Source of the DNA: an uncultured delta proteobacterium
GTDB lineage: Bacteria; Desulfobacterota; Desulfobacteria; Desulfobacterales; JAFDCJ01
Length of the DNA stretch: 64,000 nt
Reading direction: 5' to 3'
NCBI GenBank assembly: GCA_963769935.1
Contig: CAVYNY010000008.1
Coordinates: 64,001 to 128,000 of the forward strand
Shown here: positions 28,840 to 42,893 of the stretch, piece after piece
Numbering within the stretch: the stretch's first letter is position 1
Layout of the letters: each line of letters begins with the position of its first letter
Translations under genes and position numbers: made by a program
The notes under the pieces: model-generated
The model's input: only the letters and a program-made list of their open reading frames with translations
What the model was told of the DNA's origin: nothing
Database searches by the model: none

Positions 28840-29625
28840 TTACTTGAATCTGGAAAAATCAGGTTTGCGGCGCTCAAAAAAAGCCGTTAACGCCTCATCA
28901 CATTCGCCGGAATTCAGCCTTTCCGAAAACTGTTTTCTCTCTTCAGTCATAGTATCAACAATGGTTTGGGAAATGGATTTTTTGAGCAGCGCTTTGGTTA
29001 TGCGCACGGACGCCGGCGGCTGTTGGGCCAGGATTACGGCCTGGGCGAGGGCCTTATCGATATACTCCGAATCGGGATAAACAGCGTTTACCAATCCGAT
29101 TTCAAAAGCTTTGGCTGCCGAAAAAGCTTCGCCGAGCAGCAGTAATTCAGATGCCCGCTGGTGTCCGACCAATTTGGGCAACAGGAAACTGGATGCTGCC
29201 TCCGGGCAAAGCCCCAAAGCGACGAACGGCATGCGAAATTGCGCGCCTTCACCGGCATAAACCAGATCACAGTGAAGCAGCATGGTCGTACCCACACCCA
29301 CGGCCACCCCCCCGACAGCAGCCACGATGGGTTTTCTCGCCCGGCTGATGGCCGTTAAAAAATTGCTTACGTCTTTATTATCACCATCCTGACGAAAAGC
29401 TTGGAAATCTTTCAGATCATTGCCGGCAGTGAAACAATCCTGCGAACCGTGCAGAAAAATAACCCGGATATCGCTGTCCTGGTCCGCCCGGAAGATGGCA
29501 TCGGCCATGGCGGCGTACATAGCCCGGGTAAGGGCATTTTTCTTTTGCGGCCGGTTGATCCTGATTCGCAAAATCCGGTCTTGGGTCTCCGTCAATATAT
29601 CGCTAAATGTATCATCAGCAGTCAA
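28840..29625 (-). CDS. Enoyl-CoA hydratase/isomerase (crotonase fold)
   Basis: NRPQKKNAL, FTAGNDL, AVGVG, LGLCPEAAS. Confidence 0.92.
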   Translation of the reverse strand: MTADDTFSDILTETQDRILRIRINRPQKKNALTRAMYAAMADAIFRADQDSDIRVIFLHGSQDCFTAGNDLKDFQAFRQDGDNKDVSNFLTAISRARKPIVAAVGGVAVGVGTTMLLHCDLVYAGEGAQFRMPFVALGLCPEAASSFLLPKLVGHQRASELLLLGEAFSAAKAFEIGLVNAVYPDSEYIDKALAQAVILAQQPPASVRITKALLKKSISQTIVDTMTEERKQFSERLNSGECDEALTAFFERRKPDFSRFK

Positions 29626-29699
29626 TTTGACTCTCCATATGTTTAGTTGATTGAGTTGACTTGATTGATTGGTTGACTGGTTTTTAAGGAAGTAAAAAC

Positions 29700-30294
29700 C
29701 ATTTTATTCCCCCTCCCTCAATCCCTCCCGCAAGGGGAGGGAAGCCATACCGTTCCGGGCGGTTCAACTTTTAATTTATAAATTTCAATCCTGCATAGTT
29801 TTATCTTACCCTCCATCGACGAGAAGGTCTATGGGAGGGGGATAAGTTACTGAAGACATTTTTTCCGTATCACCTCCAAGACGCCTTCCATGTTTTCAAT
29901 TACTTCGTTGTCCCAAAACCTTAACACTGTAAACCCATTTTCAGCAAGAAATCTATCTCTTTTGTTATCTTTCTCCCTATTCATCTTATGCTGGCCACCG
30001 TCCAGTTCAATCACAATTCGTTTTTCAAAACTAACAAAATCTACAATAAGATTTTCTATAGGTTGTTGCCTCCGAAACTTAATTCCCTGAAGCTGCCTCG
30101 CTCTTAGCCTATTCCAGAGTAAAGATTCGACCGCGGTAGAATTTTTTCTTAACTTCTTAGAAAAATGCGTCAGTGCAACTTTCATTATTTTTGGGCCTGG
30201 CATAATTTATAGTCAAGTTACTTGTATAGCTTTAGTAGGAAGCAGTATTGCTTCCCTCCCCTGGCGGGAGGGATTGAGGGAGGGGGATAAAATG
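29700..30294. mobile_element. Putative DUF559 cassette bounded by about 50-bp terminal inverted palindromic repeats
   Basis: 29700-29750 and 30245-30294 are near-perfect reverse complements; a third, degenerate copy lies at 29805-29845. Confidence 0.6.
29847..30203 (-). CDS. DUF559 (Vsr-like PD-(D/E)xK) endonuclease domain protein
   Basis: LRKNST..E..LW, FRRQQPI, IVDF, IELDGGQH, RD..L...G..VLRF. Confidence 0.9.
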   Translation of the reverse strand: MPGPKIMKVALTHFSKKLRKNSTAVESLLWNRLRARQLQGIKFRRQQPIENLIVDFVSFEKRIVIELDGGQHKMNREKDNKRDRFLAENGFTVLRFWDNEVIENMEGVLEVIRKKCLQ

Positions 30295-30334
30295 AAAATC
30301 ACTCCTCTAATTTATTTTATTTGACAACCAGAAT

Positions 30335-31579
30335 TTATTCTTTCCTTTCAAAAACGGCCGCAATCCCCAAACCGCCGCCGCCGCAGATGCATTCCAGGCC
30401 GTAGCGCACCCCCCGCCGTTTCATCTCATGCAGCAAGGTCACCAGCACACGGGTACCGGTGCAGGCAATGGGATGCCCGAGGGATATGCCCGAGCCGTTG
30501 ACGTTAACCTTGCCGTAATCTTGCGGTCCGACTCCCATCTGCTTTAAATCGGCCAATACCTGAGCAGCGAATGCTTCCTGGATTTCGATCAGATCGATCT
30601 GTTCGATGGTGAGCCCCGCCGTGTGCAGCGCTTTTGCTACCGCTTTCGGTACAGTTTGGTAGGTTTTGCGGGGATCATCGCCGACCACGGCACAAGATCT
30701 GACAGCGGCCAGGGGTTCGATGCCCAGCTCAGCCGCCTTGACCGCACCGGCAACAACCACCGCCGCCGCTCCGTCGTTTTCCGTTGATGAATTTCCGGCC
30801 GTGCAGACCCCGCCCAGAACCGGTTTCAGCTTGGCCAATTTTTCCAGGGTCGTATCCGGACGCGGGTTTTCATCCCGCGCGATTACCACCGGATCGCCCT
30901 TGCGCTGCGGCAATGTGACTGGCAGTATTTCATCGTCAAACTTTCCCGCAGCAGCAGCGGCACAAGCTTTCTGATGGCTGGCCAGCGACCACTGGTCGCA
31001 GGCCTCCCGTGATATATTTTCTTCTTGGGCGGCTGTTTCGGCCCACGTCATCATGGCCGGCAGGATCCCGTAGCGTTGCTCGGGTTGGGACATGACCCGG
31101 GCGCGCTGAATTCGATCATAAAACGGCAGCCCCCAGATGGACAGATTTCCGTGCCCCCGGGGCAGGCCTTTGCTTCCCCCCACACCCCACTTGATGCTCC
31201 CCGGCAGGTAGAACTCGGCGTTGCTCATGCTTTCCACCCCGCCGGCCGCAATAATTTCCGCCTGATCCGATAGAATAAGGCCGGCCGCCAGGCGGACCAC
31301 ATCCAACCCCGTGCAGCAGCGCCGATCGATCGTCAAACCCGGAATGGAATCCGGCCAACCGGCTTTCAAAAGGGCCATGCGGGCTATATTTACATATTCG
31401 CCGTTCTGATAGGCTTGGCCCATGATGACTTCATCCACCCGGTCCGGCTGCATTCCGGCCCGTTTGACGGCCTCATTGAGGACCAGGCTTGCAAGGTCAT
31501 AGGCTTCGACATCTTTGAGGGCGCCCATGTATTTGCCCACCGGGGTCCGAACTGCACTGATGATGACGGGTTGATCCAT
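30335..31579 (-). CDS. Thiolase
   Basis: DRRCCTG, QEAFA, GISLGHPIACTG, CGGGGLG. Confidence 0.93.
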   Translation of the reverse strand: MDQPVIISAVRTPVGKYMGALKDVEAYDLASLVLNEAVKRAGMQPDRVDEVIMGQAYQNGEYVNIARMALLKAGWPDSIPGLTIDRRCCTGLDVVRLAAGLILSDQAEIIAAGGVESMSNAEFYLPGSIKWGVGGSKGLPRGHGNLSIWGLPFYDRIQRARVMSQPEQRYGILPAMMTWAETAAQEENISREACDQWSLASHQKACAAAAAGKFDDEILPVTLPQRKGDPVVIARDENPRPDTTLEKLAKLKPVLGGVCTAGNSSTENDGAAAVVVAGAVKAAELGIEPLAAVRSCAVVGDDPRKTYQTVPKAVAKALHTAGLTIEQIDLIEIQEAFAAQVLADLKQMGVGPQDYGKVNVNGSGISLGHPIACTGTRVLVTLLHEMKRRGVRYGLECICGGGGLGIAAVFERKE

Positions 31580-32745
31580 TTAATATCTCCATTCCCTCAA
31601 TAGATTCCTGGAAATCAGCATGCGCTGAATTTCACTGGTGCCTTCAAATATCCGGTACAGCCGGACATCCCTCAGATACATTTCGATCTGAGATTTTTTC
31701 AGATAGCCGGCATCCCCAAGAATATCCATGGCGCGATCGGCGATCCGGCTGGCCATTTCCGTACAAAAGAGTTTCACCATGGAAGCTTCATGGGTGACGT
31801 TGGTGCCGGTGTCCCGCAAACGGGCGGCGTGATGCAAGCCCTGGCGGGCGGTATAGATTTCAGTCGCCATGTCCGCTAAAGCAAACTGAGCCGCCTGCAA
31901 ATCATCTTTAGGCCGGCCGGATTCGATCAGCCGCTTGAGATGATCGGCACACATTTCCAAAAGCTTTTGAGAAGCTCCCAGGGCACAGGCACCCATGGTC
32001 AGGCGTCCTTTATCCAGAACGCGCATGGCCGTCTTAAACCCCTGCCCCACCATTTCCAGGCCGCCGATGACATTGTCTCTGGGAACCCGGCAGTTTCGAA
32101 AAACCAGCTCGTTGGTATGCGAGCCTTTCAACCCCATTTTTTCATCCGGCGGTCCCACAGTAAAGCCCGGGAAAGCCGTTTTCGAGGATAAAGGCGGTGA
32201 ACCCCTCCGCGAACGCGTTTTTTTTCATCGGTTACCGCAATGGTGGTGAAAACCTGCGCGCAATCCCCGTTGGTTATGAATTGTTTGGTGCCGTTCAAGA
32301 TCCAGTGATCGCCGGCTAGCACGGCCGCGGCTTTGATGTTGGCGGCGTCGGATCCGGCATCCGGTTCGGTCAAAGCAAAGGCAGCGGTCCATTCGCCGGA
32401 AGCAATGCGGGGAAGGTAGCGCTGCTTTTGATCGTCAGTCCCGTCAAACAGAATGCCCATGGACCCGATGCTGTTGCTGGTGCCGATCCGGGAGCGAAAG
32501 CAGGCGTTGGTGCGGGTCAATTCTTCATAAACCATGATCTCATCCACGGTCGACAAACCCAACCCGCCGTATTGCTTTGGAATCGAAAGACCAAAGAGAC
32601 CGAGCCCACGCATTTTTTCAACGATTTCTTCCGGAATTTCGCCTGTTTTCTCGACCTGGAGCGAAATGGGGTTCAGATCTTCCGCAACAAAGCGTTTGAC
32701 TTGATCCAGAATTACTTGCGGTTCGTTCGGATTTGAATCTTCCAT
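31580..32745 (-). CDS. Acyl-CoA dehydrogenase (short type), frameshifted near 32160-32210
   Basis: FALTEPDAGSD and KQFITNG in one frame; KMGLKGS and IFEGTSEIQR in another. Confidence 0.88.
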
Positions 32746-32816
32746 AATAAAAAAGTTATTCGTTATTGGTTATTGGCTATGAAATGCCTGAAATTGTAAA
32801 ATGACTAAAATTTATG

Positions 32817-33045
32817 AATCTGCAATATAAAACATTGTCGGCATCTCCTGCAGCTGACAGAAAAAAACCTTCAAGTCGCACCAGGGCGGGCTGAAACCTC
32901 GTATGAAACTTCCTTAATTTCGATGCCATTTTTACGAAGCTGTCTCACCGCTCGGAGGCTGCGGGCTCTGCGGTGAACTATTATGTTTCTTTTTCGATCA
33001 GACCGGCCGTTGTTTTGGCCGGCGGCGGCGCTGACACCTGAAACC
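32817..33045. repeat. Composite repeat: inverted copy of 10372-10455 joined to a shortened copy of 16678-16913
   Basis: Shared blocks tatgaaacttc..ttcgatgccatttttacgaag..tgtctcaccgc and gcgggctctgcggtgaactattatgtttctttttcgatcaga..gctgacacctgaaacc. Confidence 0.85.
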
Positions 33046-33065
33046 TTTTTTCTGTCTTCTGTTAT

Positions 33066-34850
33066 TCAAAACGCCTTCTCCGGCATGTCGACAATCTCGC
33101 GTCCTTCCCGCAGACATGTACTCAGAGCCGCCATCGTGTGCGGCAGCGTGACATCCGACAAAGTAGGTAGCCTGTAAAACCTTACCGCGATAGAAATCAC
33201 TTTTCCTGCCGTTTTCCATGGCCTTGGCGGCAACGGCGGCCATATCCAGCAGGCGCCAGGCCATGGTGACTTCACCAAAACTGATCAGGGCCGGATAGGT
33301 ATAAGACGCCCATTGCAAGGGATCGGATTGCATGCGCCGGCCGAGTTCTTCGGCGACGCTGTCAGCCGCGCGAGGGTCCGTCAAGGTCCTGGGCCTGGGT
33401 GCCGATCTGGGGCATATGGCTGTGATCCTGGAAAATTTCTCAATTTCAGACTTGAAGGCCAGAAACGGTGCGCCGCCGTTGATGCGCATCTTGCGCCCCA
33501 TCAGATCCATCGACTGAATTCCGTTGGTGCCCTCATACAGCGACATGATCTTGGCGTCCCGCAGGTACTGTTCAAGCGGATATTCCTTGCAGTAGCCATA
33601 TCCGCCCAGACACTGGATGGCAGTTTCACACACCCTGAAACCCATATCCGAGCAGTAAGCCTTGATGATCGGGCGTCATGAAATCGACCAGATTCTGATA
33701 GTGTTCTTTCTCCCCACCGGCGGGCAGTTCCAGAGCGTAGTCCTGCCAGAAGGCACCGGTATAGATCATGGAGCGCATCCCGTCCACCATGGCTTTCATC
33801 CATAGCAGCATCCGGCGTACGTCGGGGTGGTCGATGATCGGCACGTCTCCTGGTTTGCGTCCGGCAACATCCCTGCCCTGAGTTCGGGCCCGGCTATATT
33901 CCAGGGCATTCAGATAGGCTGTTGCGGCCAGGCTCATACCGCTGACACCGGTATTGATGCGGGCGGCATTCATCATCTGAAACATGTGCGCCAGCCCCAT
34001 ATTGGCTTCCCCGCACAAGTAGCCGATGCAGTCATCATGGGAGCCGAAGGCCAGGGAGCACGTCGGCGACGCGTGCAGGCCCAGCTTTTGTTCAACCGCC
34101 GTGCAGATCACATCATTGACGTCCCCCAGTGAGCCGTCGGCATTGACCCGCACTTTGGGGACGATAAACAGCGAGATCCCCTTGACCCCGGCCGGAGCAC
34201 CTTCGATGCGAGCCAGAACGAGATGCACGATATTATCGGCCAGATTGTGTTCGCCCCAGGAAATGAAGATTTTTGAGCCTTTAATTTTATAGTGGTCGCC
34301 CTCGGGACAGGCCATGGTTTGAAGCGCAGCCAGATTTGAGCCGGCATCCGGCTCCGTCAGGCACATGGTGCCCGCCCAGCTGCCGTTGAACATATTGGGT
34401 ATAAAGCGCTGTTTCTGTTCCTCGGTGCCGAAGCTTTCGATCAGATGCGCCGCGCCATGAGTCAGGCTGGGAGCCATGTTGAAGGCCTGGCAGGCCCCGT
34501 ACATCAGGTCGTTGACGACAATTCGCATCATGTTGCGGAAACCCCTGTCCCCCGTACTCGGGGTCGCGGGCGGCCGCCGTCCAACCGTCCTCGCCGTATT
34601 TCTTAAACGCATCTCTGAATTCAGGCGGGCAGACAACTTTACCGTTCTCAAATTTGACGCCATGCGCTTCACCGATTTCCTGCAAGGGATCCACCACTCC
34701 CTTGGCAAAACTAATCGCTTCGGTGACCAGCATGTCGAAGGTTTTTTCATTCAGGTCCTTATAGCGATCCAGGGAGCACAGGGCTCCATATTTGAGCTGT
34801 TCCTTTAAAATAAAAAAAATGTCTTTCTGGTTGATTTTAAAATGAGGCAT
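33066..34850 (-). CDS. Acyl-CoA dehydrogenase (long type), several frameshifts
   Basis: Pieces 34287-34850, 33626-34750, 32998-33645 and 33066-33278 carry GTMCLTEPDAGS, KIFIS and LYEGTNGIQ. Confidence 0.88.
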
Positions 34851-34971
34851 TCGTCACTCCTTAATTACGTCCATTGCTTAAACCAAAATCGCTTTTTTTC
34901 TGAAAACCTGAAACCTCAAAATAATCAATGCACTCGGTACATCGACAACAATTTTTCGACACACTAGGCAT

Positions 34972-35946
34972 CTAACTAACTTTTATGACTATCTTGCCGT
35001 AGCTCTGGCGGTTTTCAATTAATTCCAAAGCTTCCGGCAAATCCTTTAAACCGTGCACCGAGTGGATGATCGGCTTAATCGAACTTTCTTCATGCATCCG
35101 ATAAAGCCGCTCCTGGGTCTGTTCCATAAGCAGCGGCTTATGGCTACGGTAACTTCCCCACCACAATCCGACCACGGACATATTTTTCAATAAGGCCCGA
35201 TTGGTGCGGAATTCCGGAATGCGCCCGGAGGTAAAACCAATTACCACAATCCTTCCCTCCCAGGCGATGCACCGGGTACTTTGATCAAATATATCCCCAC
35301 CTACCGGATCGCAGATGACATCAGCCCCCTTTCCGCCGGTAAATTCCTTCACTTTGGCGACAAAATCTTCGGTCCGGTAATTAATCAGATATTCAGCGCC
35401 GCATTGCCGGCAAATTTGAAGCTTTTCAGGCGAGCCGGCTGTGGCGATGACCTTGGCACCCAGGGCCTTGCCGATTTGAATCGCGGCGGTGCCCACACCT
35501 CCGGCACCGCCATGGACCAGAAGAAATTCCGATGGCTTCAAATTCGCTCGGTGAACAAGGGCAAAATAAGCGGTCTGGTAGTTGATCTGAAAGGCAGCGG
35601 CATCCGTGTCGGACATGCTCTCCGGTATCCGGAAGGCAGCCTGCTGCGGGGCAATCATAAATTCGGCGAATGCCCCTGAATGATTCGTCATCACCCGCTC
35701 GCCCACTTTTAAGCCACAGGCATCCCCTGCTTCAACAACTTCGCCGGCAGCCTCTGCACCGGGCACGAAGGGCAGCGGCGCTTTGATCTGATATTTTCCT
35801 GCAATCGCTAGGATATCAAAGAAGTTGACTCCGGCGGCTTTTACTTTGATCAGGGCCTCAGTCCCCCGCACCCGCGGAAGATCGCGCTCCTCAAATTTCA
35901 ATCGGCCTTTATAGTCGCCGAACTCATGGACGGTCCAGGCAAACAT
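34972..35946 (-). CDS. NADPH:quinone oxidoreductase family (zinc-independent MDR)
   Basis: GVNFFD, PGAEAAG, HGGAGGVG. Confidence 0.92.
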   Translation of the reverse strand: MFAWTVHEFGDYKGRLKFEERDLPRVRGTEALIKVKAAGVNFFDILAIAGKYQIKAPLPFVPGAEAAGEVVEAGDACGLKVGERVMTNHSGAFAEFMIAPQQAAFRIPESMSDTDAAAFQINYQTAYFALVHRANLKPSEFLLVHGGAGGVGTAAIQIGKALGAKVIATAGSPEKLQICRQCGAEYLINYRTEDFVAKVKEFTGGKGADVICDPVGGDIFDQSTRCIAWEGRIVVIGFTSGRIPEFRTNRALLKNMSVVGLWWGSYRSHKPLLMEQTQERLYRMHEESSIKPIIHSVHGLKDLPEALELIENRQSYGKIVIKVS

Positions 35947-35959
35947 ATCTGCTCCTTCC

Positions 35960-36218
35960 TTAGTGAAAAATGGTGCCCCCGCAAATATTAAAGGCCTGGC
36001 CGGGTGCGCTATTCTGAATCATCGGCAACAGGGCTTTGGTACACAAGTACACGCCAAAAAGGTTGGTGCGAATGACTTCCTCGGCCACATCTTCAAGCTG
36101 TGCGCGTTCGCGCCGCCAGGACCACAGCCGCGCTTTCTTCGGCAAAGGCCAGGGCAAAGCTGCGGCCGATTTCTTTCCCGGCCCCGGTTATCAGTGCAAT
36201 TTTTTCTTTGGGTTTCAT
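35960..36218 (-). pseudogene. Short-chain dehydrogenase remnant
   Basis: Manual translation across frames: IALITGAGKEIG..LAART..LEDVAEEV | IRTNLFGVYLCTKALLP | GQAFNICGG; core SDR segments including YxxxK are deleted. Confidence 0.75.
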
Positions 36219-36471
36219 GGCAAACCTCTAATTAATCCGGTAACTAGCGCAATTGATCAGACCTCGACCGTAGCGGAGTTATTCGAGCCTGTCAATATTC
36301 TTTTGGCAAAAATCAGAATGGTAATAGAAAAATATTGGGATAATTAAGGTGATGCTCAGAATTTTTGACTTGACATACGAAATTCATTGTTAATATATAC
36401 AAATATTCATAACCGATGTCGTATTATTCCTTCTTCAATTTTATCAACACAACCTATGAGGGCATAGCCCT

Positions 36472-37146
36472 ATGCCGGCCAAACCTGCCAATATAAAGTC
36501 GAACTCCAGAATTTTGAAAAATCCCCGGAAAGGTGCCGCCATTTTAAGGGCCGCCGAACACATTTTTGCCCAAAAAGGTTTCCAGACAGCCACGGTAGCA
36601 GATATTGCCAAAAAGGCCAAGGTTTCCGAAGCGACCATATATGAATATTTCTCGTCCAAAGAAGAGTTGCTGTTTTCAATCCCGGCGGAAGCCATCAGGG
36701 AATATCAGGAAAAAAATCGTGAAATTCTACCCCATATCCAGGGAGCGGCCAACAAACTCCGTTTTTTGATTTATCGCCACCTCGGTTTGTATGCCGACAA
36801 ACCGGACTATGCAACCGTGGTGATGCTGATGCTGAAAGGCAGTCGAAATTTTTTGAAAACCGAGGCCTACAAAATTGTCCAGTCTTCGGCCCGCAATTAC
36901 ATTCAGGTGCTGGAGGAAGGTATGCAGAATGGTGAATTCCGATCCGATATTCAACCCTTTCTCGTGCGGGCGATGATCTGGGGCACCATCGATCACCTGG
37001 TCACCCGTAAAAGTCTGCTTGGCAAACCCGATGATCTTCTGACCCTGGCCGACGACATATTTAATACGATGTTTGCCGGAATCCGGTCATCAAAAAAGGA
37101 CCCCAGCATCCATATCAATGTTAACTTAACGCGAGCTGATTCTTAA
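36472..37146 (+). CDS. TetR/AcrR-family regulator
   Basis: ILRAAEHIFAQKGF...TVADIAKKAKVSEATIYEYFSSKEELL. Confidence 0.95.
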   Translation: MPAKPANIKSNSRILKNPRKGAAILRAAEHIFAQKGFQTATVADIAKKAKVSEATIYEYFSSKEELLFSIPAEAIREYQEKNREILPHIQGAANKLRFLIYRHLGLYADKPDYATVVMLMLKGSRNFLKTEAYKIVQSSARNYIQVLEEGMQNGEFRSDIQPFLVRAMIWGTIDHLVTRKSLLGKPDDLLTLADDIFNTMFAGIRSSKKDPSIHINVNLTRADS

Positions 37147-37151
37147 AAAAA

Positions 37152-37628
37152 ATGAACAATATTGCTCAATCCTTATATTTTGAGGACTTTTCTGTCGGGC
37201 AGAAATTCGTTACCAAAGCGCGCACCATTACCGAAGCCGATATCGTCAATTTCGCGGGCTTGTCCTGGGACCACAATCAGCTGCACACGGATGCCGAATA
37301 TGCGGCGTCAACCGGCTTCGGCAAACGCATTGCACACGGACTTTTAGGCGTTATCGCCCATGCCGGCCTGTCCTACGAACTCACGGAAGACAGTATTATG
37401 GCCCTACTGGAACTCACCTGGCAATTTAAGGCGCCGATTTACATCGGTGATACCATCCATGTGGAGCAGATCGTAAAAAATATGCGCGAAAGCAGTGCCG
37501 GCGACCGGGGGATTTTGACTTTTGAAAAAGAGGTGGTAAACCAAAAAAAAGAAGTTGTACAGACGGGAACCACGACTGTTCTTCTGGCCAAGAGAGTAAA
37601 GATAGAAGGTGAGAAGAGGAGAAGTTAA
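37152..37628 (+). CDS. MaoC-family dehydratase
   Basis: LYFEDF, RTITEADI.NFAGLSWD.N.LH, RIAHG. Confidence 0.9.
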   Translation: MNNIAQSLYFEDFSVGQKFVTKARTITEADIVNFAGLSWDHNQLHTDAEYAASTGFGKRIAHGLLGVIAHAGLSYELTEDSIMALLELTWQFKAPIYIGDTIHVEQIVKNMRESSAGDRGILTFEKEVVNQKKEVVQTGTTTVLLAKRVKIEGEKRRS

Positions 37629-37995
37629 GAAGCGGAGAAGATGAGCGGAGAAGAAACGCAGAGAGCAGAGGGCATAGGGCAAGGGCATAGCGTATAGCGT
37701 GAAGGACTGAGGAAAGGGGATATGGGAAAGGTTTCAGGTGTCAGCAGGCAGGTATACGAGGTCAAGAAGTTGAGAAGTTGAGGCGCTGACGCGCCAGCTC
37801 ATAGATCATAGCTGATAGCTCATAAGGAATACTCAATCAACTTAATGAACTTAATCAACCAGTCAACGATCCAAATTTATCCCGCTTGCCCAATGAAATC
37901 TCTGTTGCTCTTATTTCATCGGGGTTAAACCTTCTTGTCTTTTGTTTAACCGGGACGATCTCAACCATCTAAACCATCTGAAGTAATCTAAACCA
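37610..37995. repeat. Mosaic of 7/8/9-bp periodic tracts plus a GGTTTCAGGTGTCAG copy
   Basis: gaagttaagaagcgga.., gggcatag.., gctcatagatcatagctgatag, ctcaatcaacttaatgaact, accatctaaaccatctgaa. Confidence 0.65.
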
Positions 37996-38010
37996 AGGAG
38001 AACAAGTTAA

Positions 38011-38892
38011 ATGGAAATCAAAAAAATTTTTGTTGCCGGAGCCGGTTTAATGGGCGGCGGGATTGCACAGGTATGTGCCCAAGCCGGCTATGATGTCACC
38101 ATGAGAGATATCAGCGAAGACATTTTGAACAAAACCTTGAAAACCATCAAATGGTCGGTCGGCAAATTCGTGGAGAAAGGCAAAGTTCAGGGCACGGTGG
38201 ATGAAATTTTGGGTAGATTAAAGGCTACCACGGATCTTTCGGCGGCCGCCGATGCGGATTTCGTATTCGAGGCGATCATTGAAAATTTAGAGGCCAAGCG
38301 GACCTTGTTTGCCGAATTGGATAAATTGTGCGCCGCCAATACCATTTTTGCCACCAACACCTCCGCGATCCCGGTAACCGAAATTGCAGAAGCAACGCAA
38401 CGGGTGTCCCGGTTTTGCGGCACCCATTTTTTCAGTCCCGTGCCGCTGATGAAGGCCGTGGAAATCGTCAAAGGTCTGGGAACCTCGCCTGAAACAGTTG
38501 AAATTGCCGACAACTTATGCAAATCCATCGGCAAGGATACCATCCGGGTCAATCTCGACGTGGCCGGCATCGTTCTCAACCGCATCAATTTCCCCAGCAC
38601 CATTGAAGCCATCAAATTGGTCGAGTCGGGGGTGGCCACGGTCGAAGATGTCGATAAAGGCATGCGATTGGGATTTGGCAGACCGATGGGACCTTTTGAA
38701 ACCTCGGATATGGCGGGGCTGGACGTCGGATATAACGCCATGCTGGCCGTTTACAGGGAAACCCGGGATCCCAAGTTTTACCCGCCCATGCTGCTGCAGC
38801 GTAAAGTCAAACTGGGACACCTGGGGCGCAAAACCGGCTTGGGATGGTACAAATATGACGAGAATGGAAAAAAGATAGGTCCGGCGGAGTAA
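38011..38892 (+). CDS. 3-hydroxybutyryl-CoA / 3-hydroxyacyl-CoA dehydrogenase
   Basis: GAGLMG, EAIIE, TNTS, HFFSPVP, PMGPF, LGRKTG.GWY. Confidence 0.95.
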   Translation: MEIKKIFVAGAGLMGGGIAQVCAQAGYDVTMRDISEDILNKTLKTIKWSVGKFVEKGKVQGTVDEILGRLKATTDLSAAADADFVFEAIIENLEAKRTLFAELDKLCAANTIFATNTSAIPVTEIAEATQRVSRFCGTHFFSPVPLMKAVEIVKGLGTSPETVEIADNLCKSIGKDTIRVNLDVAGIVLNRINFPSTIEAIKLVESGVATVEDVDKGMRLGFGRPMGPFETSDMAGLDVGYNAMLAVYRETRDPKFYPPMLLQRKVKLGHLGRKTGLGWYKYDENGKKIGPAE

Positions 38893-39103
38893 AACTCGCC
38901 TGGAGACGCTGTTTTGAACTTTTGAGATAATCTATCATATAGGCTTGTTAAAGCGCAGGGATAGCCGAAGCTGAATTTAATGCATCCGCCACCGTGAGCA
39001 CTATGGCTTCGAAAAGCAGGTTGCGTTCCGCAGCACGGCTGTAATATCCACCGAAGTTCAGGCGTTCGCGGACGGGCAGAGCGATGTTGATATTGGCCAC
39101 GGT

Positions 39104-40288
39104 TCAGAGTTTGTAAGCTTTATTTAACACTTCGAGAGCATCATCATAGGAGACGGAAAGTGGATTTAAGGCAAGGGCCGGATCTTTGACGGTTTTTTGG
39201 GCGATTTCATCGAACGCTGCTTTTGCCACACCGGCTTCGGTTAAGGTTCGGGGAAGCTTCGTGGTTTTATAAAGATCGTCTTTTATTTCCCGCAGGCTCG
39301 CGATGGTTTTTTGCGGCCGATCCTTGGCCGGAGTTTCAATATATTTCTCAGGCCCGGCCAGCGGCAGCAGAAGCTCGCCGATAATTTCTCCCACAGCCGG
39401 CAAGTTATATTCAAGGCCGTGAGGCAGTAAGATATTCATGGCAATGCCATGCGGCACCTGGCAAACGCCTCCCAGGGCGTGACCCAGGGCATGGATCAGT
39501 CCCACGCCCGCGTTGGAAAAAGCAGCACCGGCCATGCAGGCTGCATTGGCCAGGTAAAATCTTGCCTCGCGATCATCGCCGTTATCGAGAACTAGCGGGA
39601 GATATTTGCGAATGAGTTTGATTGCCGCTATCGAATGGGCGTCGCTGAAAGGATTGCGGGGTTTGCAAATACAGGCTTCAATGGCATGGGTCATGGCATC
39701 CATGGCCGTAGCGGCGGTTACCAAGGGGGGCAAAGAAACAGTCATGCGCGGATCGAGAATCGCAGTTTTCGGAAACAGCAGGTAAGAGGCAAACAGCAGC
39801 TTCTTGTTTTGTGCGGCATCTCTGATCATGGCGGCGTAAGTTACCTCAGATCCGGTGCCGGAAGTGGTTGGTATTGCGATAAACGGCCGCATTGGTTTGC
39901 GCAACTTGACGCCGGCCAGCTCCGCCAGGCTGTCGACACCTTCAGTCACAACGATATTGACCGCCTTGCCCGTATCGATGACGGAACCGCCGCCGACGGA
40001 AACAATTGAATCACAATGATGCTCCCGGAACATTTCCGCCGCTTGATCGACAATCGGGGGGGATGAATCCGGCGGAACCCGGTCGAATAAAATATCGCTG
40101 AGAATCCCGGCTTTATTCAAAGCCGCCTTCACGAGCGTGACGAGGCCGGCGGCCGCAACGCCTTGATCGGTGATGATCAGAGGTCGTTTGGCGCCTAGTT
40201 GTTTCAATTCGTACCCCAGAGAATCCAGGGCATTTTCACCGGATATGATTTTGACAGGGTTAAAGAATCGGAATGAAGGTATCGTCAT
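39104..40288 (-). CDS. Iron-containing alcohol dehydrogenase
   Basis: GGGSVID, PTTSGTGSE, DAMTHAIE, HALGH..G...HG. Confidence 0.93.
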   Translation of the reverse strand: MTIPSFRFFNPVKIISGENALDSLGYELKQLGAKRPLIITDQGVAAAGLVTLVKAALNKAGILSDILFDRVPPDSSPPIVDQAAEMFREHHCDSIVSVGGGSVIDTGKAVNIVVTEGVDSLAELAGVKLRKPMRPFIAIPTTSGTGSEVTYAAMIRDAAQNKKLLFASYLLFPKTAILDPRMTVSLPPLVTAATAMDAMTHAIEACICKPRNPFSDAHSIAAIKLIRKYLPLVLDNGDDREARFYLANAACMAGAAFSNAGVGLIHALGHALGGVCQVPHGIAMNILLPHGLEYNLPAVGEIIGELLLPLAGPEKYIETPAKDRPQKTIASLREIKDDLYKTTKLPRTLTEAGVAKAAFDEIAQKTVKDPALALNPLSVSYDDALEVLNKAYKL

Positions 40289-40339
40289 TTTCTGCTCCAG
40301 CAAACGACAATAAATATGGTAGGAAAGGTCGAACTCAAA

Positions 40340-40987
40340 AAATCCCCCCCGACCCCCCTTTAGAAAAGGGGGGAGAAAGAAAAGCCCCAGCCTTCCTTAG
40401 AAACAGGTGGAAGGGAGAAATCAGCTTGGCCTCCTCTAGAAAAGTTCAGGTTTAAAAATATTGGCAACCATAGTTTAGCAAGTAGGGAAAAAGAGATTCC
40501 CGCTGCTAGCCTGTAAAAAAATGCCGAGCTGTTTACTGCTCATAATCTAAAACTCCGGATAGCACCGTTTCCCCCCTTTTTAAAGGGGGGTCAGGGGGGA
40601 TTTTCCAGATGCTTATATATCGTATCGACAACCTCCTCAATATTTTTGAGAGCATCATTATTAGAAAAGCGCAGTACCCTGAAGCCGAGATCGTTCAAAA
40701 ACTTGTCCCTTGCTTTATCCTTTGCGTGGTATTCGTTTGAATAATGCTGGCCGCCGTCTATTTCAACTATTAATTTTGCCGCAGGACAATAAAAATCTAC
40801 AATATATTCACCAATGTTTTTTTGCCTGTAAAATTGATATTGCTTAAGCTGCTTCCTCCTTATCTTTGACCAAAGGCGCCTTTCTGCATCGGTCATGTTT
40901 TTTCTGAGCTCTCTGGCCAATTGCTTGAGGTTTTTATTGTAGGGTAGCGTCGAAATCCCCCCGGCCCCCCTTTAGAAAAGGGGGGAG
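40340..40987. mobile_element. Second putative DUF559 cassette with a different palindromic repeat (AAATCCCCCC..CCCCCCTTTAGAAAAGGGGGGAG)
   Basis: Copies at 40340-40375, 40570-40603 (inverted, overlaps the stop codon) and 40953-40987. Confidence 0.6.
40591..40950 (-). CDS. DUF559 endonuclease domain protein; apparent start is ACG (otherwise TTG at 40920)
   Basis: (T)LPYNKNLKQLARELRKNMTDAE..LW, FYRQK.IG.YIVDFYC, VEIDGGQH, VLRFSN. Confidence 0.88.
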   Translation of the reverse strand, partial: TLPYNKNLKQLARELRKNMTDAERRLWSKIRRKQLKQYQFYRQKNIGEYIVDFYCPAAKLIVEIDGGQHYSNEYHAKDKARDKFLNDLGFRVLRFSNNDALKNIEEVVDTIYKHLENPP

Positions 40988-41078
40988 CAAGAATCCCGCG
41001 GCAGGGTTAGAAAAGCGAGAAATGAAAATTCCCCGGCCGGATCCGAATAACGATTAACTAATAACTATTGCTTATCTC

Positions 41079-42893
41079 CTATCCACCGAATGCCGCTTCT
41101 GAAATTTCCATGGCCGCTCCATTACATTTGACGATGCCGTTCATTTTGCCGAGGGTTGTGGGAAGAATGGTGTGGATGAAAAATTCGGCGGTTTTGAGCT
41201 GGCCCTGGTAAAATTCGATATCCTTGTTTTTGGCCCCGGCCTCGATTTTTTGCTTTGCCAGAGCGGCCCGCCACAACAGCATCCAGGCCATGATGACATC
41301 GCCCATAACTTCCAGGAAAGGAAACGCGAAGGCAAAAGCCACTTTAAACTGGGATGACATGGCGGATTGGCCAAGGTGCATGGCAACCTCACCCAGACGG
41401 CCGACAACCCTTTCGACCTCGTCCGCAATTTCTTCCAATCCCTGGCTCTCCCGGGCCATGGCAATGGTTTTTTGAATTTCCCCCAGAAAACTCATGAAAA
41501 CGCGGCCCTTATCCATTCCCAGTTTACGCCCTAAAAGATCCATGGCCTGGATCCCGTCCGTACCCTCATATATCGAGGTAATCTTGCAATCCCTGACGAG
41601 CTGTTCGACCGGATATTCTTTGATGTAGCCGTATCCGCCGTAAACCTGGACGGCCTGGACGCAGACATCAAAACCGCGCTGGGCGCAATAAGCCTTCACC
41701 AGCGGCGTGAGCAAATCGGCAAATCCCGTATAATAGGCTTTTTCTTCTTCACTGCCGGCCAGGTCTTCCTTTTCGAGGCATTGGCCCACATAATAGACAA
41801 AACTGCGCATGCCGTCCACGAAAGCTTTCATTCCCAGCAGCATCCGACGTATATCCGGATGGCTGATGATAGCGACCTGGGGAGCGTTGGGATCCTTGCC
41901 CGCCGCGAGGTCCCGACCCTGAATACGCTCCCGGGCATAATTCAAGGCATATAAATAAGCCGTCGAAGCGTAATTGAACGCCTGAAAACCGACTCCCAGC
42001 CGGGCCTCATTCATCATGTAGAACATGATATTCATTCCCCGGCAAACTTCACCGAGCAGCCAACCGCGGCATTGCCCCTTGCCGCCCAAGGTTATACTGC
42101 AGGTGGAACTGGCATGGATACCCATCTTTTCCTCGATGCCCGTGCAAACCACATCGTTGGGTTGTCCCAGGCTGCCGTCCTCGTTGACCCAGATTTTGGG
42201 AACGATGAAGATGGAAATACCCTTGGTGCCCGACGGATCCCCTTCAATCCGTGCCAGAACCGGATGAATGATATTTTCCGTCAAATCATGTTCACCGTTG
42301 GTAATAAAGATTTTGTTGCCGGTGATGGAATAGGTGCCGTCGGCATTTTTGACTGCGCTGGTCGTCAGAGCGCCAACATCGGAGCCTGCCTGGGGCTCGG
42401 TCAGCAGCATGGTGCCGCCCCATTTACCGGTATAAAGCTTTTCAAGAAAAAGATCTTTTTGCCGGTCAGTGCCAAAAATCTCAATCATCTTTCCGGTGCC
42501 GTGCCCCATGCCGGCATAGTTGGTTACCGCCCAGTTGCCGCCGAACAGATATTCGCCCACCGCCAGGGAAATATTGACGGGAAGACCCTGCCCTCCCCAT
42601 GCGGGATCCTCCATCAGAGACGTCCATTCGCCTTCCAGAAGCAATTCAAATGCCCGATGAAAACACTCGGGGACCTTGACCTGACCATTTTCAAACTGCA
42701 GCCCGTCGCTGTCACCTTCAGCCGATGTCGGCAGCAGTTCCTTGACGGCAAAATTGCGGGCTTCAGTGATGATCATATCAAAAGTTTTTTTGTTGAAGTC
42801 TTTGTACTTATCGAGTTTCGTCAGCTCATCGACCTTTAACTGTTCGTAGAGCACAAAATCGATGTCCCGTCGATCGGCGATTACCTGAACCAT
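41079..42893 (-). CDS. Acyl-CoA dehydrogenase (long type)
   Basis: GTMLLTEPQAGSDVG, KIFITNGE, IYEGTDGIQ; close paralog of 916-2737. Confidence 0.95.
   Translation of the reverse strand: MVQVIADRRDIDFVLYEQLKVDELTKLDKYKDFNKKTFDMIITEARNFAVKELLPTSAEGDSDGLQFENGQVKVPECFHRAFELLLEGEWTSLMEDPAWGGQGLPVNISLAVGEYLFGGNWAVTNYAGMGHGTGKMIEIFGTDRQKDLFLEKLYTGKWGGTMLLTEPQAGSDVGALTTSAVKNADGTYSITGNKIFITNGEHDLTENIIHPVLARIEGDPSGTKGISIFIVPKIWVNEDGSLGQPNDVVCTGIEEKMGIHASSTCSITLGGKGQCRGWLLGEVCRGMNIMFYMMNEARLGVGFQAFNYASTAYLYALNYARERIQGRDLAAGKDPNAPQVAIISHPDIRRMLLGMKAFVDGMRSFVYYVGQCLEKEDLAGSEEEKAYYTGFADLLTPLVKAYCAQRGFDVCVQAVQVYGGYGYIKEYPVEQLVRDCKITSIYEGTDGIQAMDLLGRKLGMDKGRVFMSFLGEIQKTIAMARESQGLEEIADEVERVVGRLGEVAMHLGQSAMSSQFKVAFAFAFPFLEVMGDVIMAWMLLWRAALAKQKIEAGAKNKDIEFYQGQLKTAEFFIHTILPTTLGKMNGIVKCNGAAMEISEAAFGG

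Follow-up and report, generated by a model that had tools for sequence, protein, structure and literature searches.

To our knowledge, no substrate has been assigned to the DUF559 proteins, and we know of no strand-transfer step for a hydrolytic enzyme of the Vsr type. As for the enzymes, a DUF559 protein has been found to trigger the SOS response in vivo, and for the VsrA from Caulobacter a role in T:G repair has been put forward, its methylase being unlinked (PMC12907096). As for the repeats, those of the BoxC/PIT type, which are capable of forming triplexes, have been known since the 1990s and have been assigned neither a function nor a partner enzyme (Holder et al. 2015; PMC4666352). According to the same paper, PIT elements block the polymerase in vitro and have no promoter or terminator activity, TM motifs are tied to instability with no enzyme being invoked, purine-motif triplexes do not form in RNA, and no stable triplex was observed in vivo. 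The words 'nuclease', 'DUF' and 'vsr' are absent from the main text of that paper, and no associated mobility gene is named there; a literature search confined mostly to journals free of subscription turned up no publication in which DUF559 is connected with these repeats. Repeats and enzyme fold have each been described already; what is new here is the match between protein clade and repeat type, the covariation of the three strands and a candidate specificity residue, as well as the finding that the ACG start is peculiar to one assembly.

Architecture of the two cassettes

The window, i.e. the whole stretch of 64,000 nucleotides analysed, contains two DUF559 genes accompanied by repeats, designated here as cassette 1 and cassette 2. 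The gene of cassette 2 (40591..40950, minus strand; PF04480) consists of 119 codons and a stop; its frame reads TLPYNKNLKQLARELRKNMT...ENPP-stop, from ACG at 40950-40948 to TGA at 40593-40591, and the product matches PF04480 with an E-value of 5e-41 and 139 bits, the curated cut-off being 20.6 (Pfam). The frame, this match and the coordinates confirm the preliminary description of a second, diverged DUF559 gene with three repeat copies. The gene is bordered by an acyl-CoA dehydrogenase on one side and an iron alcohol dehydrogenase on the other (Pfam), there being no methylase among these two adjoining genes. Pfam also revealed no transposase domain in cassette 2, the DDE domain of a classical insertion sequence included.

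The first repeat, R1 (40953..40985), lies upstream of the gene and has its triplex motif on the minus strand—the gene's sense strand—according to both the sequence and the triplex scan. It is composed, in this order, of a pyrimidine stem, a loop, a purine stem, a 2-nt loop and a mirror third strand; its hairpin amounts to -9.7 kcal/mol, ViennaRNA giving the hairpin alone. As described previously, R1 ends 2 bp from the ACG, with the G-run of its third strand at ribosome-binding distance. The second repeat, R2 (40571..40603; triplex motif on the plus strand), is inverted to R1 and overlaps the last codons, its second loop—a 3-nt spacer—being exactly the TGA stop codon, so the earlier observation that one repeat overlaps the C-terminus and gives the stop holds for this middle copy. 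The spacer of three to four nucleotides originally ascribed to the repeats had to be corrected to 2-3 nt. The third repeat, R3 (40340..40373; triplex motif on the minus strand, triplex scan), is inverted to R2 and forms with it an inverted pair having 34-nt arms that are 91% complementary and 198 nt apart. As read, the orientations of the three copies are (+) for 40340-40373, (-) for 40571-40603 and (+) for 40953-40985. The repeats are not a product of chance: their leader pattern has 2 matches in the window versus 0.00 expected, and of the 4 hairpin cores present in the 8.0-Mb genome, 3 belong to cassette 2. The sole dispersed copy of this repeat type in the genome, an orphan at G000:C11:493058-493084, is surrounded by tandem 7-mers within an AT-rich region between genes.

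Between R3 and R2, four decayed tandem copies were recognized (40377..40528, plus strand), starting near 40377, 40418, 40455 and 40494 with a spacing of 37-41 nt, and one further, weak copy (40987..41022, plus strand; score 6.1) lies beyond R1. They are weak singly, with alignment scores of 6.1-11.2 against a window background in which 146 of 62,516 35-mers reach a score of 6 and 3 reach 10, and they are jointly in register. The decayed units reported earlier for 40381-40490 are therefore present, but they occupy four slots from 40377 to about 40528, plus one near 40990. A search of the region 29000-42000 with Rfam gave two chance-level matches below the gathering score and none on the cassette 2 repeats.

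Cassette 1 harbours a DUF559 gene (29847..30203, minus strand) whose product is 42% identical to that of cassette 2, has R41 and belongs to the clade with GGGAG repeats. Its repeats (29703..30292) display the same triplex architecture with a different stem sequence; they comprise an inverted pair at 30245-30292 and 29703-29750 (92%) and a decayed copy at 29809-29845. The layout of one repeat upstream and an inverted pair downstream, proposed for both cassettes, was found in both, but the orientation of the upstream copy in cassette 1 is the opposite one. The assignment of the cassette 2 repeat to a different family was rejected, the repeats of both cassettes being sequence variants of one triplex architecture; judged by sequence, the published class II intrastrand-triplex motif of the BoxC/PIT type underlies both.

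The DUF559 protein

The catalytic residues E23, D52, E63, D65, H69 and D78 are intact in the cassette 2 protein, which also bears the clade marks Y41 and S96. In the alignment of 87 sequences, E23, E63, D65, H69 and D78 are invariant and D52 is conserved in at least 90%; by their spacing, E23, D52, D65, H69 and D78 match the residues of the EDxHD/Vsr enzymes (PMC3239194). Since the single-sequence model (pLDDT 59) gave no Foldseek match at E ≤ 0.001, the alignment-based model (pLDDT 90) was used instead; it is similar to 3hrl (Z 16.6), I-Bth0305I (Z 11.6) and the Vsr-DNA complex 1cw0 (Z 10.2). With respect to the congeners, the dN/dS of the gene is 0.06-0.11, i.e. it is under purifying selection. 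The cassette 2 protein is thus predicted from its model to be a DUF559/Vsr-like nuclease of the EDxHD type with the Vsr fold. Matches to enterotoxin B were discarded as being at chance level (E ≥ 0.21).

Triplex geometry and covariation of the three strands

The G-rich strand of each cassette 2 copy reads as a pyrimidine stem, a loop, a purine stem, 2-3 nt and a mirrored purine stem, the mirror strand having G for G and either A or T for A. With the stem CCCCCCTTT/AAAGGGGGG and the third strand GGGGGGATT, the triplex scan predicts nine perfect triads for each of R1, R2 and R3 in the geometry of a class II purine-motif intrastrand triplex.

For the covariation test, hairpins were chosen by Watson-Crick pairing alone and the third strand was scored afterwards, a perfect mirror being found in 337 of 774 strand readings (approximately 387 hairpins, both strands read). 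Among motifs with at least 7/9 matches, the third-strand mirror is perfect in 88% (251 motifs) and 96% (121 motifs), compared with 44% and 34%, respectively, when the third strands were shuffled within their class; moreover, the shift of the stem's internal A is mirrored in the third strand in 22, 18 and 10 concordant cases. It should be noted that these figures are not p-values, since the sequences include relatives, which do not count as independent. Third strand and hairpin stem covary, which indicates, at the level of sequence comparison, that the triplex structure is under selection; as purine-motif triplexes are absent in RNA (PMC4666352), the structure selected for is probably one of DNA. 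Symmetric forms, with a third strand on both sides of the hairpin, were seen at G158:C2:3491-3532 and G275:C4:96092-96132, and these could in principle fold a triplex on either DNA strand.

Occurrence of triplex repeats at DUF559 genes

A class II triplex motif is located within 400 bp of the DUF559 match in 169 of 180 loci, compared with none of 150 windows placed at random in the own genome, the 180 loci remaining from 187 after 7 without a tblastn hit were dropped. Since 80 of the loci had been picked by their similarity to cassette 2, the fairer figure is that of the phylum sample, drawn blind to repeats, in which 93 of all 102 DUF559 matches have the motif. In the Pseudomonadota sample, where 30 of 67 matches were taken in, it is present at 22 of the 30 loci. 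The commonest of the eight arrangements, G-upstream/C-downstream, accounts for 93 of 187 loci. Across many phyla, the repeats are near-perfect and fixed in their orientation beside proteins that are 40-60% identical, while extra copies lying a few bases outwards decay. The DUF559 gene of Escherichia coli, ycjD, carries two BoxC copies in inverted orientation at its 3' end; the TMECO pattern, when run on MG1655, returned the 23 copies published, one of them 170 bp downstream of ycjD.

At some loci (L246, L248, L249, L250, L253, L027, L032, L195 and L200), DUF559 domains with triplex flanks reside within long open frames of up to about 1,300 codons, where the repeats are read as proline/glycine-rich linkers; in L249 and L250, both repeats are in the reverse arrangement.

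The start codon and the repeats as possible expression signals

The ACG in the start position (40948..40950, minus strand) is private to the source assembly. Two contigs of other runs differ here: the one from run X1 matches the window without any difference over 40767-40948 and then reads GTG, and the one from run X5, with 1 difference in 89 nt, has an ATG start, the spacer to the repeat being 3 nt in both. Among the 54 alignable starts in the cassette 2 repeat class—39 of the 93 rows being dropped as having no alignable start motif—ATG, GTG or TTG is found in 48 and ACG only in cassette 2. No contig was found that spans the ACG and extends 31 letters to either side of it. The frequency of CTAG in the genome is not below that of the congener loci, which lends no support to a motif-specific base-calling error at the ACG. 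In the contigs of the other runs, the positions 40948-40950 do not read ACG, and its interpretation as an attenuating start is supported neither by these contigs nor by the starts of the homologues; the codon most probably reflects either a lesion private to this assembly or an error in it, and would play no role in the mechanism. Two acyl-CoA dehydrogenase genes in the window, one with two frameshifts (33157-34850, 6 kb from the cassette) and a second one split into two ORFs (31580-32745), reflect assembly error or decay.

The closeness of the repeats to the ends of the gene recurs at other loci. The end of the third strand is at most 12 nt from the first codon in 30 of the 52 GATT-type loci with a G-oriented upstream copy, and at 114 of 136 loci the DUF559 frame extends into the downstream repeat, which makes the stop-supplying repeat a family trait. 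Both counts would also be expected if the repeats were kept mainly as RNA signals—G-run, hairpin and stop—for an unrelated gene, with the ACG attenuating a toxic nuclease. Such an explanation is, however, very improbable, since the distance from the third strand to the start ranges from 1 to 78 nt, near-identical strains are without the ACG, the mirrored changes of the third strand are in keeping with purine-motif triplexes, a structure not formed in RNA, and PIT elements have no promoter or terminator activity (PMC4666352).

Protein clade and repeat type

The evolutionary tree, obtained by a quick IQ-TREE search, is based on 119 columns and 207 proteins, from which 4 duplicates had been removed, with 104 of its 204 forks left open; a motif was detected for all but 20 of the proteins, leaving 187 typed rows. 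The four repeat types require 16 changes on the tree against a shuffled mean of 77, and the GATT type, to which cassette 2 belongs, requires 6 against 63; as the shuffles show clustering only, these counts are to be read in this weaker sense. All 93 GATT rows are positioned on one side of a branch with an SH-aLRT of 83, together with 9 rows of other types and 5 without a motif, this side covering about a dozen phylum-level groups. A row and the nearest protein from another host family have their type in common in 168 of 187 cases (39% expected). In the 20 genomes with several cassettes, the type of the nearest foreign protein is matched by 40 of 47 rows and that of the genome-mates by about 18, which means that the host does not set the repeat type. 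The expected association between DUF559 clade and flanking repeat class has thus proved strong, within single genomes too, the repeat type following, on this tree, the protein and not the host.

Residue 41 is Tyr in 89 of the 93 GATT rows and Arg in 63 of the 68 GGG rows, and Trp96 is found in 58 of the latter and in no GATT row. The rows within the clade of cassette 2 that have an altered repeat end (L062, L080, L157 and others) are also altered at residue 41, and none of 11 further loci has either Tyr41 or a GATT motif. This position may be considered a candidate for the specificity of the enzyme. L106 was rejected as an exception to the pattern, having been mislabelled by the typing rule.

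It should be pointed out here that a cassette inherited as a linked block would be expected to show the match between clade and repeat without any specificity, and that the main clade split may be one old event. The independent-pairs test gave p = 1 and is underpowered, with 1-3 pairs on well-supported branches of a tree built without the columns of these residues. The earlier proposal that each nuclease variant co-evolves with its own repeat therefore stands as far as the clade match is concerned, and strict co-evolution of an enzyme-substrate pair would go beyond this match; the covariation of clade and repeat is a matter of observation, whereas its being driven by specificity would be our interpretation.

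Dispersed copies

Counts in trans were made for 301 genomes of the phylum, with overlapping and cassette-flanking matches included and with kin that are not independent. At least 10 matches to either repeat pattern were present in 51 of 67 genomes with DUF559 and in 49 of 234 without it, and at least 10 T-type matches in 15 of 20 genomes with a gene of the cassette 2 clade, 14 of 47 with another DUF559 and 21 of 234 with none. The type of the dispersed repeats leans to the resident clade, the median T fraction being 0.64 versus 0.10. Five of five repeat-rich genomes without a DUF559 match stayed negative with a protein query, indicating that the repeats outlast the gene, that the assemblies miss DUF559 or that another enzyme is at work. 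G131 has 728 T-type matches, yet its DUF559 genes are only of other clades; this genome and G080, G096, G204, G268 and G290, in which 150-900 repeat matches occur and the corresponding DUF559 clade is missing, are candidates for another partner enzyme or for a recent loss of the gene. In E. coli, the TMECO copies number 23, 23 and 16 in records with ycjD and 12, 3 and 1 in those without it (six records, three further ones being left out; kin not independent).

The repeat-rich genomes lacking DUF559 can also be taken, together with the non-significant independent-pairs test, to mean that another enzyme, or replication slippage and recombination, spreads the repeats, DUF559 being a Vsr-type repair enzyme or a general nuclease that was captured once and is matched to them by descent. 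The literature offers some ground for this, a T:G repair function having been suggested for VsrA, which is not linked to its methylase (PMC12907096), and the instability of TM motifs having been described with no enzyme invoked (PMC4666352). We nevertheless regard it as unlikely: repeats that are near-perfect and of fixed orientation beside proteins of 40-60% identity, with decaying outer copies, the leaning of the dispersed type to the resident clade and the lack of a methylase among the two neighbours of cassette 2 all speak against it.

Presence, absence and genomic context of the cassettes

The congeners G008 and G018 possess the same two flanking genes with cassette 2 absent between them; conversely, the own genome, G000, is empty at the thiolase locus, at which G002, G003 and G013 carry copies that are 76-80% identical. 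The presence and absence of the cassettes are therefore reciprocal at two loci within the genus. Neither a clean empty allele nor a target duplication was found, the empty sites being too diverged or containing other inserts. In G002 and G003 (L005, about 1195-1215; L004), a repeat copy lies immediately against the TAA with which the upstream thiolase gene ends. The site of the congeners' cassette in the own genome (G000:C16:241549-241766) holds a different inverted repeat with short CACGAAA-like units and their complements. The cassette-free intergenic regions L220:2668-2967 (G008) and L221:2688-2889 (G018) both exhibit 7-mer tandem runs, the former also having a palindrome that ends in CCTAC and presumably resembles a GTAG-type REP. 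The orthologous site of cassette 2 looks like a hotspot for small repeat elements. In E. coli without ycjD, the site of this gene is occupied by a TetR gene block.

The flanking contexts differ among lineages, with 8 of them in 9 Smithellaceae loci, many in the own genus, and 3 in 24 Acinetobacter loci, 21 of these in a single one. Of 5,426 E. coli genomes, 3,378 have ycjD as a single chromosomal copy at one site; the number of divergent cassettes in one genome can reach six, and matches are rare on plasmids (29 records, many of them megabase-sized) and phages (3 records). The one-site copy in E. coli, the one dominant context in Acinetobacter and the rarity on plasmids and phages, as well as the purifying selection on DUF559 and the blocking of the polymerase by PIT elements in vitro (PMC4666352), would suit a nuclease that recognizes its own triplex and resolves, on behalf of the host, triplexes stalling replication or transcription, the repeats multiplying as a by-product or otherwise. 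A housekeeping role of this kind is difficult to reconcile with up to six divergent cassettes per genome, with the many contexts in Smithellaceae and the own genus, with cassette units inside long open frames of other genes and with genomes that manage hundreds of repeats without DUF559, so that we consider it quite unlikely.

Proposed mechanism and significance

Based on the above results, the Vsr-fold DUF559 gene lying between inverted repeats predicted to fold into triplexes constitutes a three-part cassette. Its product may nick the cognate triplex-capable repeat while the DNA is transiently single-stranded, and host repair would then copy the repeats or, more rarely, the whole cassette. 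On balance, it seems probable that DUF559 recognizes and nicks its own variant of the triplex repeat, with host repair doing the copying, and the comparisons suggest that these long-orphaned triplex repeats are likely cut and spread by DUF559. A broader version is offered tentatively and may well prove wrong: DUF559 could be a nuclease specific for both the structure and the sequence of intrastrand triplexes, in which the residue within F-x-R-Q reads the repeat end (Tyr for GATT, Arg for GGG), driving minimal, transposase-free nick-and-repair elements and non-autonomous repeats, the BoxC/ycjD pair of E. coli included.

The pairing of BoxC/PIT with DUF559 makes both the function of the repeats and the substrate of the enzyme directly testable in E. 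coli K-12, with its ycjD and 23 TMECO copies, and the own genome, having two cassettes with different repeats, provides a ready-made cross-test. The covariation of the three strands represents comparative evidence for selection on a DNA triplex in bacteria; a small nuclease with a switchable triplex specificity would, if real, be a useful reagent.

Comparison with known systems

Of the repeats described, those of the BoxC/PIT/TMECO type (Holder et al. 2015; PMC4666352) have in common with the cassette repeats the class II purine-motif geometry with 9-nt stems, a short first loop and a second loop of about 3 nt, the triads G:G-C, A:A-T and T:A-T, the intergenic position, the inverted pairs and the patchy copy number. 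The cassette 2 stem departs, by inspection, from the TMECO consensus, its inner stem being TTT/AAA and not CCC/GGG.

With regard to the enzyme, I-Bth0305I, an EDxHD homing endonuclease (PMC3239194), has the fold (Z 11.6, rmsd 2.9 over 94 residues) and the catalytic set in common with the cassette 2 protein and is an earlier example of a Vsr-type domain that mobilizes the gene encoding it. In contrast to it, cassette 2 has no NUMOD DNA-binding region, intron or intein, its protein has 119 residues, and its gene is free-standing, intergenic, chromosomal and bounded by repeats. The fold is also that of Vsr (1cw0, Z 10.2), and the spacing of E73/D102/D115/H119 in the Caulobacter VsrA equals that of E23/D52/D65/H69 in cassette 2 (PMC12907096); the cassette 2 gene has no adjoining methylase and is flanked by triplex repeats.

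The REPIN-RAYT system (10.1101/2021.07.10.451892; PMC3733652) likewise unites a small enzyme gene with its own short structured repeats on its flanks, inverted doublets dispersed in the chromosome, an enzyme lineage matched to the repeat type, and rarity on plasmids. Despite REPIN-like doublets in other genomes, the own genome has one dispersed copy of the cassette 2 repeat type. A fixed single-copy locus with vertical inheritance, as for RAYT, fits E. coli and most Acinetobacter and does not fit Smithellaceae or the own genus. The differences concern the enzyme, RAYT being an HUH (Y1) tyrosine transposase and the DUF559 cassette having a Vsr-fold PD-(D/E)xK nuclease instead; the repeats, the GTAG/CGTC tag of REP being absent from the three cassette 2 copies and a mirror third strand being present in the cassette repeats; and the genomic behaviour, since several DUF559 clades coexist per genome and the locus changes in some lineages. 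By analogy, the best reading of the DUF559-repeat pair is that of a RAYT/REPIN-like arrangement built on a hydrolytic nuclease, i.e. not of a member of the REPIN-RAYT system itself.
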